Positions 11,125 to 49,394 of a stretch of DNA of 64,000 nucleotides are shown here, one piece after another; position 1 is the first letter of the stretch, and each line of letters begins with the position of its first letter. The position numbers were made by a program, and so were the translations under genes. This stretch comes from an uncultured Gammaproteobacteria bacterium (GTDB taxonomy: Bacteria; Patescibacteriota; Microgenomatia; Daviesbacterales; UBA10151), in assembly GCA_964387865.1 (NCBI GenBank), contig CAYLXC010000001.1:50597-114596 (forward strand), given 5' to 3'. The notes below the pieces were generated by a model. The model worked only from the letters and a program-made list of their open reading frames with translations. It was not told the DNA's origin and made no database searches.

Positions 11125-11153
11125 TTGACAAGGATTGAATTAGCTGATATATT
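11125..11153 (+). promoter_or_regulatory. sigma70-like promoter (TTGACA - 17 nt - TATATT)
   Basis: Consensus -35 hexamer at 11125-11130 and -10 hexamer at 11148-11153. An ATG follows 7 nt downstream. Confidence 0.5.
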
Positions 11154-11160
11154 ATCTTTT

Positions 11161-11208
11161 ATGCAAAACCTAAGAAGATATTTTAATTTCTTCTTTACCT
11201 TCGCTTAA
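11161..11208 (+). CDS. putative 15-aa Phe-rich leader peptide MQNLRRYFNFFFTFA
   Basis: Near-leaderless ORF directly after the promoter. Its stop codon sits at the base of hairpin A. The composition (FNFFFTF) resembles E. coli pheL ([15 protein letters not shown]). Confidence 0.35.
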   Translation: MQNLRRYFNFFFTFA

Positions 11209-11277
11209 ACGGAGGTTGGTTTTTGTGTAAAAAAACCAACATAACTTAACCTCCGTTTATAAGTGGAGGTTTTTTTT
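11207..11277 (+). promoter_or_regulatory. attenuator-like leader unit 1: hairpin A (aaacggaggtt...aacctccgttt) and alternative terminator B (acctcc..ggaggt + T8) whose 3' arm is the SD for the ATG at 11278
   Basis: Direct reading: 'ggaggt' (11211-11216), 'acctcc' (11249-11254), 'ggaggt' (11265-11270), 'tttttttt', then ATG. Confidence 0.5.
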
Positions 11278-11520
11278 ATGGAGAAAAGAAAGGAAGGTGA
11301 AAAAATGGTAGAAAGAATAATTGTAAAACCCGAATATCCCGAACAAAAAGGTATTACTCGGGCTTTAGCTGATCTTGATCGAATTCAAGTAGATATTAGA
11401 GGAAGAATGATTGGTTCAGAGCCAGTCGCACAGACAGGATCATCAAGTTTACAAACTAGAGTAAAAATATCACTAGAATATCCAGATCCTACTGAACGAA
11501 AACCATATTTCGTTCGCTAA
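11278..11520 (+). CDS. hypothetical small protein (80 aa from ATG 11278; table ORF starts at GTG 11263)
   Basis: SD GGAGGT lies 8 nt upstream of ATG 11278. The product has no recognised motif. Confidence 0.45.
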   Translation: MEKRKEGEKMVERIIVKPEYPEQKGITRALADLDRIQVDIRGRMIGSEPVAQTGSSSLQTRVKISLEYPDPTERKPYFVR

Positions 11521-11522
11521 AC

Positions 11523-11552
11523 TTGACAAAATACATAAACTGCCCTTATAAT
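11523..11552 (+). promoter_or_regulatory. sigma70-like promoter (TTGACA - 18 nt - TATAAT)
   Basis: Consensus hexamers at 11523-11528 and 11547-11552. An ATG follows 11 nt downstream. Confidence 0.5.
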
Positions 11553-11563
11553 TTAAATAGTCT

Positions 11564-11668
11564 ATGTCAAAAGTTGAAGTAATTGATTTAAGAAAAGTAG
11601 AAGTTATTCTTGGCCTCCTTATTTTAGTGCTCGTTACGGGCACTTTTTTGGGAGGTCTTTTTAGGTAA
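11564..11668 (+). CDS. putative 34-aa Leu/Val/Ile-rich leader peptide MSKVEVIDLRKVEVILGLLILVLVTGTFLGGLFR
   Basis: It starts right after the promoter. Its last codons (gggaggtcttttt) form the 5' arm of hairpin A of unit 2. Branched-chain residues (L8, V6, I3) are enriched, as in leu/ilv leader peptides. Confidence 0.35.
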   Translation: MSKVEVIDLRKVEVILGLLILVLVTGTFLGGLFR

Positions 11669-11720
11669 AAAATAACCTAAAAAAGAAAGTAATCAGACCT
11701 CCCTAACGGGAGGTTTTTTA
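11650..11720 (+). promoter_or_regulatory. attenuator-like leader unit 2: hairpin A (gggaggtct...agacctccc) and terminator B (cctccc-taac-gggagg + T6) that contains the SD of the next gene
   Basis: Direct reading of the sequence. Terminator B is a 6-bp GC stem with a 4-nt loop and a U6 tract, immediately followed by start codon TTG 11721. Confidence 0.5.
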
Positions 11721-12011
11721 TTGGGAAAAAATATGAGTGAAAGATTTAGACCAGATACAATACATAGAAGGGCCTATAAAATAGCCTCAGAAACCTTTGC
11801 GAATGTCGAAAGTTTAACTGATGAACAAGTAGGAGTAGTAGAAAATGACAGAAGAGGTAGAAGAAGAATGATCCATTCATTACAGCAAAGTCTGAAGGAA
11901 ACTTCAGGAGAAGAACGAAGACGGTTACTTGAGCAGTTACATGATCTGGAATCGCATCAATTCGCATCAAGATATGCAATCGAAAAACGTTCAGGTAAAA
12001 GATTTTTTTAA
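11721..12011 (+). CDS. hypothetical small basic protein (96 aa, Arg-rich)
   Basis: The ORF follows SD GGGAGGT at optimal spacing from start TTG 11721. No recognised domain. Confidence 0.45.
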   Translation: MGKNMSERFRPDTIHRRAYKIASETFANVESLTDEQVGVVENDRRGRRRMIHSLQQSLKETSGEERRRLLEQLHDLESHQFASRYAIEKRSGKRFF

Positions 12012-12248: not shown

Positions 12249-12291
12249 TTCTAAAAACGACCTATTGCACAGAAAAATCAATTACGGTAGC

Positions 12292-12378
12292 ATGTATTCC
12301 ATATGCATACTAAAGCTGAAATTATTATTGGAATTATTATTACTTCTAAAAAGGGAGGTTGTTTGGCGTAAGTCTTAA
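12292..12378 (+). CDS. putative 28-aa Leu-rich leader peptide MYSICILKLKLLLELLLLLKREVVWRKS
   Basis: Ten Leu including LLLELLLLL. The ORF ends inside the 5' arm of hairpin A of unit 3. It is preceded by a weak TTGCAC-17-TAGCAT promoter-like pair. Confidence 0.4.
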   Translation: MYSICILKLKLLLELLLLLKREVVWRKS

Positions 12379-12431
12379 AAAAAGATTCCGCAACAAACCT
12401 CCTGAAAGGGAGGTTTTTTAATGAGAAAAAT
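12348..12431 (+). promoter_or_regulatory. attenuator-like leader unit 3 upstream of the cimA/leuA-family gene: hairpin A (gggaggttgtttggcg...cgcaacaaacctcc), terminator B (acctcc-tgaaag-ggaggt + T6), and an 8-codon uORF (ATG 12421, MRKIWQKL) overlapping the cimA start
   Basis: Direct reading of the sequence. SD GGGAGGT (12408-12414) is optimally spaced for ATG 12421. The cimA ATG at 12432 is in another frame. Confidence 0.5.
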
Positions 12432-43687: not shown

Positions 43688-43941
43688 ACATAAAAATTTC
43701 AGGTTTTGTCCAGGGAATTTTTTTCAGATTAACAGCAAAAGAAAAAGCGGAAAAATTGGACATCAGGGGATTTTCAAGAAATCAGCCAGACGGATCTGTT
43801 TATATTGAGGCAGAGGGAGATGAGAAAAGTTTAAGTGAATTTATAAAATGGTGCCACCAAGGTCCGTCCTTAGCAAAAGTGGAAAAAGTTGAAATATCAG
43901 AGGGATTGCTGAAGCATTTCTCAGAATTTGAAGCTTATTAA
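43657..43941 (+). CDS. acyP: acylphosphatase
   Basis: ISGFVQGIFFR and GFSRNQPDGSVYIEAEG signatures. Start taken as ATG 43657 (about 94 aa). Confidence 0.75.
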   Translation: MESRQPTKHLNIKISGFVQGIFFRLTAKEKAEKLDIRGFSRNQPDGSVYIEAEGDEKSLSEFIKWCHQGPSLAKVEKVEISEGLLKHFSEFEAY

Positions 43942-45047
43942 ACAATTCTTTCCCAGGGGAATTCTTCGCGCCCGAAGTGGCCATACGCGGCTGTTGGTAA
44001 ATAAATTGGCCTTTGTAAATCCAAGCCTTCCAAAATTCCTGCAACTGATGTATCCAAAATTTTATCCATAAAAGAAAGAATTATCTTGTGTGATTTTTTG
44101 TTAGTTCCAAAAGTTTCTACATCCTGCATAGTTGGCTTTTTTGCCCCAATAAAATAAGCAAGTCTTACCTCCGCTTTTTCAGCTAAGCCATGAGCTACAA
44201 CATTTTTTGCTAAAAATCTTGCAGCATAGGCCCCGCCCCTATCAACCTTTGATGGCTCTTTTCCTGAAAAGCATCCTCCTCCAACCCTTGCATATCCTCC
44301 ATAAGTATCAACAACAATTTTTCTTCCGGTTAACCCGCAATCCGATGCAGGCCCGCCATTATGCCAAATTCCTGTCCCATTAACAATTAATTCCTTCTTC
44401 TTAATTTTATATCCGAAAGTATCCAAAACCGGAGTTACTACTATATTATAAACATCATCCTTTACTTGATTTAAATTTATGGATTCTTTGTGAGGTATAG
44501 CAACAACAACTTGCAAAACTTTGTAAGGTTTGCCGTTTCTATATTCTATAGTTACTTGCGATTTCCCATCCGGTCTAAGATAATCCAACATTTTCTCCTC
44601 CCTTACTTGATCCATTCTTTTAACTAAAGCATGTGCAATCATAATTGGAACGGGCATTAATGTGGAAGTTTCTCTGCAGGCAAAACCAAACATCATGCCC
44701 TGGTCTCCTGCCCCTTTTTTCTTAACTCCTACTGCAATTTCAGGGGATTGTTCATGCACAAAAACCTCAATAGGTGACTTATCTGAAAAATTAAATTTGG
44801 GATTTGTATATCCAAGTCTCCTTATTTGCTCCCTGGCAATTTTTTTGTAATCCACTTTTGCATTCGCGCCTATTTCTCCTGCAATAATTAACCTGTTATT
44901 TGCCGCCAGACACTCAATTGCAGTCCTGCCTTTTGGATCTTGTTTTAATACTTCATCCAAAATTGCATCAGAGATCTGGTCACAAATTTTATCAGGGTGA
45001 CCGGCACAAACAGATTCTGATGTAAAAGTTGTTATACCGTTTTTCAT
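43938..45047 (-). CDS. metK: S-adenosylmethionine synthetase
   Basis: FTSESVCAGHPDKICDQISDAILD N-terminus and the GGGAFSGKD-like motif (GGGCFSGKEPSKVDRGGAYAAR). Confidence 0.9.
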   Translation of the reverse strand: MKNGITTFTSESVCAGHPDKICDQISDAILDEVLKQDPKGRTAIECLAANNRLIIAGEIGANAKVDYKKIAREQIRRLGYTNPKFNFSDKSPIEVFVHEQSPEIAVGVKKKGAGDQGMMFGFACRETSTLMPVPIMIAHALVKRMDQVREEKMLDYLRPDGKSQVTIEYRNGKPYKVLQVVVAIPHKESINLNQVKDDVYNIVVTPVLDTFGYKIKKKELIVNGTGIWHNGGPASDCGLTGRKIVVDTYGGYARVGGGCFSGKEPSKVDRGGAYAARFLAKNVVAHGLAEKAEVRLAYFIGAKKPTMQDVETFGTNKKSHKIILSFMDKILDTSVAGILEGLDLQRPIYLPTAAYGHFGREEFPWERIV

Positions 45048-45048
45048 G

Positions 45049-45190
45049 AAAAAAACCTCTCATCAAGAGAGGTCCAAAGTTTGCCCATACTGGACCACAT
45101 CCCACAATTATGTAAACTAATTGTGATTGGCACCGTTCTTTCCGGTTGCCGCCCCGTACCATACAATACAGGATCTCTTGATGCAGATAC
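45049..45190 (-). promoter_or_regulatory. metK leader: terminator/SD-sequestering hairpin (acctctc-ttgat-gagaggt + U7 + AUG), a long-range competing segment (gcatcaagagatcc), and a SAM-I-like core (GGCAACC-GAAAGAAC-GGUGCCAAU); putative SAM-responsive riboswitch
   Basis: Read from the minus strand: P3-like 'ggcggcaaccggaaagaacggtgccaatcac', the 5' strand 'catcaagagat' complementary to 'tctcttgatg' in the terminator 5' arm, and terminator stem acctctc/gagaggt followed by TTTTTTT and the metK ATG. Confidence 0.45.
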
Positions 45191-45211
45191 TAGTAAACCA
45201 TAAATCGTCTA

Positions 45212-47163: not shown

Positions 47164-48456
47164 TCATTTTATGTTTGCTCTAATGATTCGTATCATATAA
47201 ATGGAGAGTCTTCTCTCATTGCGTCTTGCTCTCAAGTATATTGGAATTAAGAATAAAAGTAGTATTCCAGCTATAAACCATGAAGTCTGTATACTTGTAT
47301 TTTTTGCTATCCAACCTAAAACTACTAATCCTAGAGCTGCTCCAAACTTTCCCATCATAGAATCGAAAGATAAAACAGTGGCTCTTTGTTCTCCTGGAAT
47401 ATGCTTATTAAGATATGCTTTATGGGCAGGAGTTAGCATACCTCTTCCAATCTCATAAGTGAAAAAACTTACTAATACAACAGCAAAAATATTTGAAACG
47501 GAAGAAATTAATATTGGTACAGCCAAAAATATAGCAGTTAAGATAAGAATCCATGAGTATGCTCTCTCCTTTTTTAGAAGCATTTTAACGAGATAGCTTC
47601 CAATTATCATAAATAAACACATACCGGCCCAGACCCAACCCATTAGCCAAATTTGATTGCCAGCAAGATCATTCATTCTGGGTGACCAATACATATTAAG
47701 AGGCTGGAAAGCAAACATTGAAACTATAGAAGATAAAATCAACCAAAGTATGACTTTATGCTTTATACCATAAGTAATACTATCTTTAGCTACCTTTCCA
47801 ATTTGACCTATGTTTCCAACTAGATTAAGGGTCTTTTTTATTTTTGTGTCTTCATTTATATAAAATATAGAAACCAATAGCCCGGCAAATGCTACAACAG
47901 CACCAATTCCGAAAGGTAAGTTCAATGCTATAGCCCCTAGATATCCTCCCAATAACCCCCCTAAAAGGGCTGCTACTTTTCCAATAATTGCCGCATGGGA
48001 GAATATGAAATCTATTTTACCAATATAATTTTTTCTTTCCATAGAATCCACCATCCATGCATCCAAAGCACCTGAGGCAAAAGTAAAATGTATGGCGGCC
48101 AAAATTTCAGCCAAAATAAACATTGCAATATTTTTTGATTCAAAATAAACAAGCAAGGCAACTACTAAAAAGACAAAGCTTAATACGATAGCTTTTCTTC
48201 TCCCAAAATAATCTGCATAAGCCCCAGTCGGAATTTCAAAAATAAAATTTGCTACCATAAATACCAAATTAACTAGCATCACTTGAAAGACATCTAAACC
48301 TTTGCTTAAAAGAAATAGTACATATGTCGCAGCCGTTAAACCGACAGCAAAATCAAATAGAAAAGTTAGTAGATAATAAACTGCCCTCGTGTCTTTTGCA
48401 CGAATGCTATTTGAAAAACTACTTACTCTTTTATCCATGTTATTTAAGTGTAACAT
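47164..48456 (-). CDS. MFS transporter
   Basis: Twelve-TM pattern with the MFS loop 2-3 motif (GAYADYFGRRK). Confidence 0.75.
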   Translation of the reverse strand: MLHLNNMDKRVSSFSNSIRAKDTRAVYYLLTFLFDFAVGLTAATYVLFLLSKGLDVFQVMLVNLVFMVANFIFEIPTGAYADYFGRRKAIVLSFVFLVVALLVYFESKNIAMFILAEILAAIHFTFASGALDAWMVDSMERKNYIGKIDFIFSHAAIIGKVAALLGGLLGGYLGAIALNLPFGIGAVVAFAGLLVSIFYINEDTKIKKTLNLVGNIGQIGKVAKDSITYGIKHKVILWLILSSIVSMFAFQPLNMYWSPRMNDLAGNQIWLMGWVWAGMCLFMIIGSYLVKMLLKKERAYSWILILTAIFLAVPILISSVSNIFAVVLVSFFTYEIGRGMLTPAHKAYLNKHIPGEQRATVLSFDSMMGKFGAALGLVVLGWIAKNTSIQTSWFIAGILLLFLIPIYLRARRNERRLSIYMIRIIRANIK

Positions 48457-48944
48457 TATCTAAATATTGTTCTTTGTTTTTTCCTGACACTGACAATATG
48501 ATCATGCGGAATACAGTATCTAAATGATATACCTCTTATTTCATCCTCCAAATCTGATATTTTTTGTATTGCATCAGAAATTGTCTCCATGCTCCACTCA
48601 GGCAAGTTGGGTTTTATAAAGGTTTTCACTTTTGGAACTTTAACCTTTATCCAGTAACCAGGAAAAGGAGGGTCTTCCCTAATTGGCCCTTTATCTAAAA
48701 CACTTCTGACAATATGGTAATTTCTATCGAGTTCTACTACTCCTTTTAAAACTACTCTCCATACCCTACCTCTATGTTCAGTCAGAAGAATTCCATTACC
48801 CATATCAACTCCTAATGACAAAGCACTATTTGCTATATGCAAATACTCGGAAGGGTCAACTTCCAATTTGTGTCTTTCTATATGATCTACAACATGATCT
48901 ACACTTGAGCAAACATTTTCAAAATATAATCTTTCCATAACCAT
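48456..48944 (-). CDS. hypothetical protein (162 aa)
   Basis: ORF preceded by SD GGGAGGT + T7 + ATG, which is embedded in a terminator hairpin. GC-richer composition. Confidence 0.5.
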   Translation of the reverse strand: MVMERLYFENVCSSVDHVVDHIERHKLEVDPSEYLHIANSALSLGVDMGNGILLTEHRGRVWRVVLKGVVELDRNYHIVRSVLDKGPIREDPPFPGYWIKVKVPKVKTFIKPNLPEWSMETISDAIQKISDLEDEIRGISFRYCIPHDHIVSVRKKQRTIFR

Positions 48945-49120
48945 AAAAAAACCTCCCTTTTGGGAGGCTTCTGTGAATTTATTAAAATCTTCTTAGATTA
49001 AGACTTATTTACCACAGGAATAAACCTCCCACTTGAGAGGTACCAATAAGCACACGAAAAGTTGTCATTTAAAATTTTCATACTTTAATCATTGTAACAT
49101 AAAGAAAATTAACTTGTCAA
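48945..49120 (-). promoter_or_regulatory. leader with promoter (TTGACA-18-TACAAT, plus-strand coordinates 49091-49120), 27-aa leader ORF (48998-49081), hairpin A and terminator B (gcctccc-aaaa-gggaggt + U7) whose 3' arm is the SD
   Basis: Read from the minus strand. It has the same architecture as the three units at 11.1-12.4 kb. Leader peptide: MKILNDNFSCAYWYLSSGRFIPVVNKS. Confidence 0.45.
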
Positions 49121-49133
49121 CTATGGGGTATAT

Positions 49134-49394
49134 TTAAGTAGATACTGAGACAAACTTCCAAGGTTCTTTTTTACTCTTAGTTTCTTCTGCTTTTACTACC
49201 TTTTTACCTTCTTCTAAAAGATCTTTAACTAACTCATCATTTATTTCATTCAGTTTTTTATCTGTTGCAGAGAAAGGCACTACTGAAGCATTTGAAGAAT
49301 AAAAATTCTTAGAGTCTTCAGGATGTGAAGCTAGATAATCAGTTAACTTTACTGTTAAATCCATATTTTTAACTGCTTGTTGTTTTTTACTCAT
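49134..49394 (-). CDS. hypothetical small protein (86 aa)
   Basis: ORF between rpsI and the leader. Lys/Glu-rich C-terminus. Confidence 0.4.
   Translation of the reverse strand: MSKKQQAVKNMDLTVKLTDYLASHPEDSKNFYSSNASVVPFSATDKKLNEINDELVKDLLEEGKKVVKAEETKSKKEPWKFVSVST

Follow-up and report, generated by a model that had tools for sequence, protein, structure and literature searches.

The 64,000-nucleotide stretch of DNA analysed here, referred to below as the window, comes from contig CAYLXC010000001.1 (assembly GCA_964387865.1; positions 50,597 to 114,596), which GTDB places in the Daviesbacterales within the Microgenomatia. Its GC content is 35.6%, and its ribosomal protein S9 is 61-73% identical to that of Candidatus Daviesbacteria metagenome-assembled genomes (MAGs) and up to 80% identical to that of other MAGs. 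We focus on unit 4, a minus-strand element at 48945-49120 that precedes a gene for a 162-aa protein (gene X) and carries a promoter-like sequence, a short leader open reading frame (ORF) and four complementary segments (Table 1). The gene order is rpsI, an 86-aa gene, unit 4 with X and a major facilitator superfamily (MFS) transporter gene, a 161-aa gene on the opposite strand, and a phosphoglucomutase gene. An initial annotation, made from the sequence alone, had described the element as a leader-ORF attenuator built like the units at 11.1-12.4 kb of the window, and this description is now supported by folding, by conservation in two further lineages, by a layout shared with those units, and by the leaders of cimA genes in relatives.

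Table 1. Features of unit 4, its flanking genes and similar elements elsewhere in the window.
Feature	Position	Strand	Remarks
CCCATAG heptamer	49121..49127	-	Abuts the -35 box; invariant across aligned orthologous units
Predicted sigma-70-type promoter	49091..49120	-	TTGACA (49120-49115), 18-nt spacer with TGn (ending in TGt), TACAAT (49096-49091); 11/12 consensus positions
Leader ORF	48998..49081	-	27 codons, MKILNDNFSCAYWYLSSGRFIPVVNKS; ATG 49081, 9 nt past the -10 box; stop 49000-48998
Segment 1	49035..49041	-	ACCTCTC; anti-antiterminator arm, pairs with segment 2; overlapped by codons Y14-L15-S16; CCTCTT in orthologues
Segment 2	49012..49030	-	GGGAGGTTT...CTGTGG; antiterminator 5' arm; within leader codons G18-V24
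Segment 3	48962..48976	-	TCACAG-AAGCCTCCC; antiterminator 3' arm; the AAGCCTCCC part is the terminator 5' arm
Segment 4	48945..48957	-	GGGAGGT + T7; 3' arm and U-tract of the predicted intrinsic terminator
Gene X	48456..48944	-	162 aa; probable start ATG 48938
MFS transporter gene	47164..48456	-	Same transcription unit as X; probably starts at ATG 48438; follows X in the window and L007, missing from L001
86-aa gene	49134..49394	-	Between rpsI and unit 4
Unit 1	11127..11280	+	Phe-rich, putatively leaderless leader MQNLRRYFNFFFTFA, ATG 11161; precedes a gene for an 80-aa protein without detectable relatives
Unit 2	11523..11735	+	34-codon Leu/Ile/Val-rich leader MSKVEVIDLRKVEVILGLLILVLVTGTFLGGLFR; precedes 92-aa and 68-aa genes of no assigned function
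Extra hairpin in unit 2	11626..11644	+	Terminator-like, with T6, within the leader ORF
Unit 3	12266..12431	+	Ile-rich leader MHTKAEIIIGIIITSKKGGCLA; precedes the citramalate synthase gene cimA
metK	43938..45047	-	
Terminator-like hairpin before metK	45054..45074	-	gacctctc-TTGAT-gagaggtt, T5, c, ATG
SAM-I riboswitch match	45094..45187	-	29.1 bits, E = 8.6e-5; gathering score 44.4
Probable SAM-I riboswitch with platform	45048..45211	-	Before metK

The promoter and the leader ORF were both recovered as the initial annotation had described them. The predicted promoter is the top promoter-like site within the 8 kb scanned, and the count of promoter-like sites in this stretch is no higher than in shuffled sequence. 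Upstream of its -35 box, the CCCATAG heptamer is kept in all unit-4 orthologues despite their differing upstream genes; it may be an UP-like or operator element that provides a second control layer. No Shine-Dalgarno (SD) sequence precedes the leader ATG, and the usual start of transcription, 6-9 nt past the -10 box, falls at this ATG, so that the leader would be translated as a leaderless mRNA whose transcription begins at or within ~3 nt of the ATG. Four aromatic codons (F8, Y12, W13, and Y14) are found immediately 5' of segment 1 or inside it. The leader stop lies 22 nt past the start of the basal arm of segment 2 and 23 nt before segment 3, and a terminating ribosome would therefore be expected to mask segment 2 only.

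Three pairings are predicted among the four segments. The 1:2 hairpin (ACCUCUC-AAGU-GGGAGGU, -9.0 to -9.5 kcal/mol) has its 5' arm inside leader codons 14-16; the 2:3 antiterminator, which includes an inner helix and an AT-rich apical stem, reaches -22.8 kcal/mol; and the 3:4 terminator (gcctccc-aaaa-gggaggt, 48970-48945) has -12.4 (7 bp) to -15.2 kcal/mol (10 bp) and is followed by U7 directly before gene X. The 2:3 and 3:4 hairpins share segment 3 and are hence mutually exclusive, with the U-tract following 3:4. The initial annotation had named these two hairpins, one with its 5' arm inside the leader ORF and the other ending in T7, and folding yields both; what it had missed was segment 1. 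The 161-nt region as a whole folds at -47.2 kcal/mol, compared with -30.1 ± 3.5 kcal/mol in shuffles (z = -4.9), and 0/200 shuffles were as stable. In the full-length minimum-energy fold, 2:3 is nested within a 1:4 helix. Because a stem precedes the U-tract either way (1:2 with 3:4, or 1:4 around 2:3), the folding suggests that termination is the default of the untranslated RNA.

The underlying motif is rare in the window. The 64 kb contain exactly four instances of CCTCC-N2-14-GGAGGT, where 0.16 would be expected, and these are the three units at 11.2-12.4 kb and unit 4; all four loci have a second GGAGG upstream and a T-run downstream. Strong terminator-like hairpins number only 11 in the window, and 5/11 have the form ACCTCYC-loop-GRGAGGTT-T5-8-ATG, the fifth being located before metK.

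Close orthologues of X were found in two other lineages, represented by contigs L001-L006 (70% identity) and L007 (65%), and the upstream regions of these genes could be aligned with unit 4. CCCATAG-TTGACA is invariant among them, the -10 box is TACAAT or TAAAAT, and the leader ATG lies 10 nt past the -10 box in both the L001 group and L007. Their leader ORFs, MKNINCFRRFDFPYILLKGEVFSVV and MNNNCFRRFDFNYTLLKGEEFFVA, comprise 25 and 24 codons, so that the three leaders differ in length by whole codons (indels in multiples of three), and they read through segments 1 and 2 in the same frame as the window leader (CTC-xxx-xxx-GGG). Neither lineage has lost any of the four segments or the T7 run, while the apical loop has diverged, with indels. 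The predicted energies of 1:2, 2:3, and 3:4 are -6.5, -16.3, and -11.2 kcal/mol in the L001 group and -7.3, -19.2, and -12.7 kcal/mol in L007. The loop-closing terminator pair is C-G in the window, U-A in L001, and U.G in L007, and the changed U can still pair with G in segment 2; in addition, an inner antiterminator pair changes from C-G in the window to U-A in L007 (compensatory). Every pair change thus preserves both alternative structures, among three lineages that are too few for statistics.

The other units of the window share this architecture. In all four, a promoter is followed by an ATG 7-11 nt past the -10 box and by a stop at or just after segment 2, the last sense codons overlap the 1:2 hairpin, and a 2:3 antiterminator precedes a 3:4 terminator with a T-run. 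The same geometry, including the position of the leader stop, was found in 9/9 units examined across all loci. The most informative case is unit 3, whose downstream protein scores 445.9 bits on TIGR00977, just below the 450-bit cut-off, and would be a citramalate synthase, the first enzyme of a route to isoleucine. Three relatives (L061-L063; CimA 55-61% identical), two of them annotated as Candidatus Daviesbacteria, also carry Ile-rich leaders (MSKQVGQIIIAIIASPKGGLLR, MSKQRAQIIIEIIIASPKGGLLR, and MNIQNSISIIIAIITSRKGGFFA), with an ATG 7-10 nt past a -10-like box, a CCUCYC/GGGRGG 1:2 hairpin, an antiterminator, and a terminator with T-run. Because the cimA platform keeps an Ile-rich leader in three Daviesbacteria-type relatives, ribosome-mediated attenuation is, on this comparative evidence, genuine and is used and conserved in this lineage. 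In the closest relative (L060, CimA 89% identical), no terminator was found within the 87 nt of available upstream sequence. In unit 3 of the window, and only there, the frame one over from that of the leader, starting at ATG 12292, which overlaps the -10 box, encodes the Leu-rich MYSICILKLKLLLELLLLLKREVVWRKS; this frame is closed in L062.

The initial annotation had regarded the design as a genome-wide regulatory idiom. Within the window and the related loci that could be compared, the platform recurs at cimA and at Phe-related genes of relatives, whereas a scan around rpsI in 45 genomes (~30 of them Microgenomates, ~300 kb in those related genomes) found no such platform; the idiom is therefore not tied to the rpsI locus. 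A comparison of own and cross duplexes of the antiterminator extensions in ten units (means of -6.5 vs. -4.0 kcal/mol) was set aside as too noisy, because several units share a UUGUUG/CAACAA core.

The simplest alternative involves no switch at all: the hairpin would be a plain terminator of the upstream rpoA-rplQ-rplM-rpsI operon, X would have a separate promoter, and the small ORF and the complementarity would be fortuitous. A 27-codon open frame at 36% GC has a chance of ~0.14, as calculated from base composition, there is no other terminator between rpsI or the 86-aa gene and the site, and CCTCCC-loop-GGGAGG with a T-run serves as a plain intergenic hairpin at one of the distant X loci described later (L064). 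However, a promoter upstream of a terminator is sensible only if the terminator is conditional, and segments 1 and 2 are conserved even though a plain terminator has no need of them. The start, frame, and stop of the ORF relative to the helices are also kept through two 3-nt indels and, in L007, in another gene context, and nine platform units share one geometry. We therefore regard a fortuitous arrangement as highly improbable.

Comparison of the gene orders indicates which gene is controlled. L007 has a tRNA-synthetase-like fragment followed by the unit, X, and the MFS gene, and L001 has rpsI, the unit, and X, with the phosphoglucomutase gene next. As the L001 lineage keeps the attenuator and X yet lacks the MFS gene, the predicted switch belongs to X and not to the MFS gene. 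This also weakens a reading that we first considered and then demoted for the same reason, namely that the element is a general translation-stress or antibiotic-responsive attenuator, in which a drug-stalled ribosome induces the MFS gene as an efflux pump, as in bmrB-bmrCD, mef/mel, and vmlR. This class of switch is well documented: bmrB-bmrCD (PMC4191407) and mef(E)/mel (PMC4335068) are antibiotic-responsive ribosome-mediated attenuators and, like unit 4, have a short upstream ORF (uORF) over the anti-antiterminator, a terminator choice set by stalling, and a transporter downstream. The leader of unit 4 also lacks a clear single-codon run, and the MFS protein, a generic 12-helix transporter, is closest to Tet(40)/TetA(P) and H+ antiporter efflux families (E = 2e-25). 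Its matches, however, fall far below the family cut-offs (90 bits vs. 800 for Tet(40)), and by that test it is not a bona fide resistance determinant. Unlike in the two documented systems, the transporter is dispensable in one lineage, and the neighbours of X homologues point to Phe metabolism, since these homologues lie in Phe clusters behind Phe or Phe/Tyr leaders. Control by antibiotics is thus an unlikely explanation.

The start of X bears on a further alternative. The initial annotation had placed it at ATG 48944; this ATG is present, but the true start is probably ATG 48938, 6 nt downstream, because the orthologues begin at MERLY. GGAGG (48956-48952) lies within segment 4, the 3' arm of the terminator, 7 nt before ATG 48944 and 13 nt before ATG 48938, and the same overlap of terminator and SD is seen before metK (45074-45054) and in units 1-3. 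This arrangement resembles ermC-type translational attenuation, which likewise has four segments and an SD in segment 4 that is freed when the leader ribosome stalls in segment 1. Control of X could then be mainly translational, with 3:4 sequestering the SD, a leader stall freeing it, and termination being secondary or absent. By contrast with ermC, the U7 run of unit 4 is conserved, and seven invariant T residues immediately following a stem are what characterises a canonical intrinsic terminator. The SD spacing varies, being 7-13 nt in the window and 18 nt from the MERLY start in the orthologues, and in the more distant locus L066 GGAGG is ~85 nt from the probable start of X, which has an SD of its own. 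Predominantly translational control is thus improbable, although the two modes are not mutually exclusive. Since the spacing varies, the X gene of L066 has its own SD, and the hairpin also occurs as a plain intergenic element (L064) and in the metK platform, SD masking is best regarded as an optional extra, and the predicted conserved function is termination.

The search for homologues of the 162-aa protein, which the initial annotation had proposed, yielded distant homologues in Phe clusters in addition to the close orthologues of L001-L007. X is rare, with three clusters among 5.8 billion proteins and 17 profile matches among 1.8 billion representatives. The distant full-length homologues that were looked up (41-45% identity) adjoin a gene for prephenate dehydratase (PDT) in 3/3 cases, and all three loci also carry DAHP synthase or pheS/pheST in the same cluster. 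L064 (homologue P0005) has a GCCTCCC-GAAT-GGGAGGT-T7 terminator at the contig edge, followed by DAHP synthase, PDT/ACT, and X. L066 (P0004) has a leader with attenuator, PDT, a second leader (MKKYQQFFKFYFYYPKPGGLLMS) with attenuator, X, a 68-aa gene, pheS, and pheT; the leader before PDT reads ..SNQIKFYFFYFTSQTGRLVGALKA (..KFYFFYFTSQ..), and the ATG of the second leader overlaps the PDT stop as ATGA. L067 (P0006) has a leader with attenuator, ending in ..KKFTFA before the stop, followed by X, PDT, and pheS. In two of these three loci (L066 and L067), a Phe- or Phe/Tyr-containing platform leader thus lies directly upstream of X. The 3' end of the L067 leader (TTT ACC TTC GCx stop, CGGAGGTT) is common to unit 1 of the window. 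What appears to be a single operon in L064 contains a symmetric hairpin (936-962; A6-CCTCCC-GCAA-GGGAGG-T5) in the gap between the DAHP synthase and PDT genes; it resembles a bidirectional terminator and may alternatively be a processing or stability element.

Because family X is repeatedly found behind Phe or Phe/Tyr leaders and beside genes for Phe synthesis or charging, we read unit 4 as a diverged aromatic-amino-acid (Phe/Tyr/Trp) attenuator whose copy in the window would have drifted from a Phe-rich to a mixed F/Y/W leader. The stall geometry can be estimated on the general assumption that a ribosome shields ~10-12 nt 3' of the A-site codon. The A-site codons that would expose segment 2 while disrupting segment 1 are then 11-13 (GCT-TAT-TGG), with Y14 borderline, and the leaders of all three unit-4 orthologues have a Tyr codon at the corresponding stall position. 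The switch would probably turn X on when the supply of phenylalanine or tyrosine is short.

Overall, we consider it about 70% probable that unit 4 has a promoter of its own and works as a classical trp/phe-type attenuator, in which a ribosome translating the leader peptide decides between termination and read-through of transcription. What was observed here are the sequence elements with their alternative pairings, the conservation of both, and the proximity of X-family genes to Phe genes; where transcription starts, that the leader is translated, where the ribosome stalls, what it senses, and that transcription terminates are all inferred. Transcription would start at or very near the leader AUG, and the 27-codon leader would be translated without a 5' untranslated region (UTR). 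When no ribosome is present, or when one sits at the stop and covers segment 2, 3:4 would form, and GCCUCCC-AAAA-GGGAGGU with U7 would terminate transcription; in any full-length RNA, this hairpin would also hide the GGAGG before X. A ribosome stalled with codons 11-13 (GCU-UAU-UGG, Ala-Tyr-Trp) in its A site would cover segment 1 and leave segment 2 free, so that 2:3 is the first to form and transcription continues into X and the MFS gene. The most likely signal would be a shortage of charged aromatic tRNAs (Tyr, Trp, Phe).

Several points weigh against this interpretation. The protein under control is uncharacterised, and PDT, DAHP synthase, and pheST are absent from the 64-kb window, although they may be located elsewhere in the genome. 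The leader peptide is poorly conserved between the window and the L001 and L007 lineages. The window leader has no run of one codon, and its aromatic residues (2 F, 2 Y, and 1 W; 5/27) are not significantly enriched (P = 0.14 vs. a background of 0.104). On the supporting side, and in a zone chosen post hoc, 4/9 of the codons before segment 2 are aromatic in the window and in both orthologous lineages (NFSCAYWYL, FRRFDFPYI, and FRRFDFNYT; P ~0.01 each, background 0.10); a clear cluster is seen in the same zone of L066b (7/9) and unit 1 (6/9). At gathering thresholds, Rfam recognises only RNase P and two tRNAs across the window. In E-value mode, Phe_leader (RF01859), whose gathering score is 55 bits, reaches 26.8 bits on unit 4 (E = 0.021), in a match confined to the terminator half, and 27.7-29.3 bits on units 1-3; by score, unit 4 is outside this family. 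To our knowledge, leaderless translation has not been demonstrated in bacteria of the Candidate Phyla Radiation (CPR). Finally, once segment 1 is masked, equilibrium slightly favours the terminator state (-26.1 kcal/mol) over the antiterminator (-22.8 kcal/mol), so that the switch must be kinetic, with 2:3 forming ahead of the synthesis of segment 4. Co-transcriptional kinetics also underlie classical attenuators, including that of E. coli trp.

Among known systems, unit 4 is most readily compared with the E. coli pheA (pheL; RF01859) and pheST (pheM) attenuators. Like these, it has a promoter-proximal ORF with aromatic codons before or in segment 1, alternative 1:2, 2:3, and 3:4 hairpins, and an intrinsic terminator before the structural gene. 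The related platforms are placed as in Phe attenuators, upstream of PDT and of X-68aa-pheS-pheT in L066 and upstream of X-PDT-pheS in L067, and the leader ends of unit 1 (..FNFFFTFA) and L067 nearly match that of pheL (..FFFTFP). Unlike pheA and pheST, the leader of unit 4 has no SD, would lie at the transcription start, and contains mixed F/Y/W codons instead of a Phe run; unlike pheA, the unit regulates an uncharacterised protein, and its host belongs to the Microgenomates (CPR). Leaderless leaders have precedents in Actinobacteria, including the C. glutamicum ilvBNC attenuator with its three-hairpin model (PMC11857589) and the mycobacterial poly-Cys uORFs, which are reported as attenuators of operonic expression (bioRxiv 10.1101/834739). 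There, as proposed for unit 4, the transcript opens directly with the leader ORF, which has no SD, and ribosome progress controls the operon. Unit 4 differs in belonging to another phylum and in its GC-poor RNA with CCUCC/GGAGG arms, and the mycobacterial uORFs are not reported to have this terminator design.

The compact layout also raises the question of whether the ~135-nt RNA from promoter to terminator acts chiefly in trans, as a small RNA (sRNA), possibly of dual function, whose CCUCC motifs target the SDs of other mRNAs. It is a discrete promoter-terminator unit with one CCUCU and one CCUCC anti-SD-like motif, and Sinorhizobium rnTrpL offers a precedent for an attenuator-derived sRNA (PMC6614838). 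No target is known, however, the element always lies directly upstream of X in three lineages, and such a role would add to attenuation in cis, not replace it. We regard it as very unlikely to be the chief function.

The attenuation mechanism itself is a textbook one and is new for this CPR bacterium; among the papers that we searched, none reports leader-peptide attenuation in CPR/Patescibacteria. The distinctive aspects are the phylum, the leaderless uORF, the weak and mixed aromatic codon signal, and the control of an uncharacterised protein family. A Daviesbacteria-like organism thus appears to sense tRNA charging by the same logic as E. coli, using leader peptides without a 5' UTR, which would imply efficient leaderless translation and transcription-translation coupling in the tiny CPR cells. 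The platform (promoter, leaderless uORF, CCUCC/GGAGG hairpins, and U-tract) can also serve as a search key that links genes to amino acids in uncultured bacteria, and the X family gains a testable link to phenylalanine biosynthesis and Phe-tRNA charging.

No match to X was found in Pfam, NCBIfam, PADLOC, or PDB sequences. An AlphaFold2 run with a 16-sequence alignment gave a confident two-domain model (predicted local distance difference test score, pLDDT, 91), whereas a run with three sequences was unusable (pLDDT 39.5). A Foldseek search of the model against the PDB returned nothing significant. The modelled N-terminal domain resembles, suggestively, the BECR/RelE fold, a likeness assigned to this domain by its size and the order of its secondary structures, as the output gave no aligned residues. 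The HxxxH pointed out by the initial annotation corresponds to H21/H25, which, with R80 and S81, are invariant in seven aligned full-length members; across 16 family sequences only R80 is invariant, and H21, H25, and S81 are ~90% conserved. A scan with the family alignment found no relative in genome contigs and only the already known contig in metagenome contigs. The N-terminal domain occurs alone in an archaeal contig (L010, 4001-4381; marked by L21e, L15e, L31e, and S19e) and, in divergent orientation, beside an AsnC/Lrp-type ligand-binding regulator in two bacterial contigs (L012, 4001-4327, and L013). Two homologues that have only the N-terminal domain, P0014 from a DPANN-like archaeal contig and P0016 next to a regulator of AsnC type, are not accompanied by an attenuator and say little about function.

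What X does can be discussed tentatively. One possibility, which we consider less likely than not, is that the X family is an unrecognised component of aromatic (Phe) amino-acid homeostasis in Microgenomates; if so, CPR bacteria, which are usually regarded as auxotrophs with little regulation, would use a single modular platform for several leaderless leader-peptide attenuators (Phe, Ile, and branched-chain). X may supply an activity otherwise missing from the pathway, since PDT and DAHP synthase are encoded in these operons and no chorismate mutase domain was seen in the L064, L066, and L067 clusters, or it may have a regulatory role. Alternatively, X may be an RNase of the RelE/BrnT fold that stands alone and is induced directly when ribosomes stall at Phe, Tyr, or Trp codons, in which case a toxin-like nuclease would be under leader-peptide attenuation instead of an antitoxin.

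The genes flanking unit 4 had been described as GC-richer, a description that does not hold: X has a GC content of 0.35-0.36 and the 86-aa gene one of 0.29, the lowest of the region, against a window mean of 0.356. The 86-aa gene is absent from the L001 lineage, and its product scores 26.1 bits on Pfam DUF5647 (threshold 27 bits). Comparison of the 80-, 92-, 68-, 86-, and 161-aa proteins with one another and with small genes of related loci revealed no similarity. Elsewhere in the window, the fifth terminator of the same style lies directly upstream of metK, where a SAM-I match below the gathering score (Table 1) points to what is probably a divergent SAM-I riboswitch that uses the same terminator/SD expression platform.

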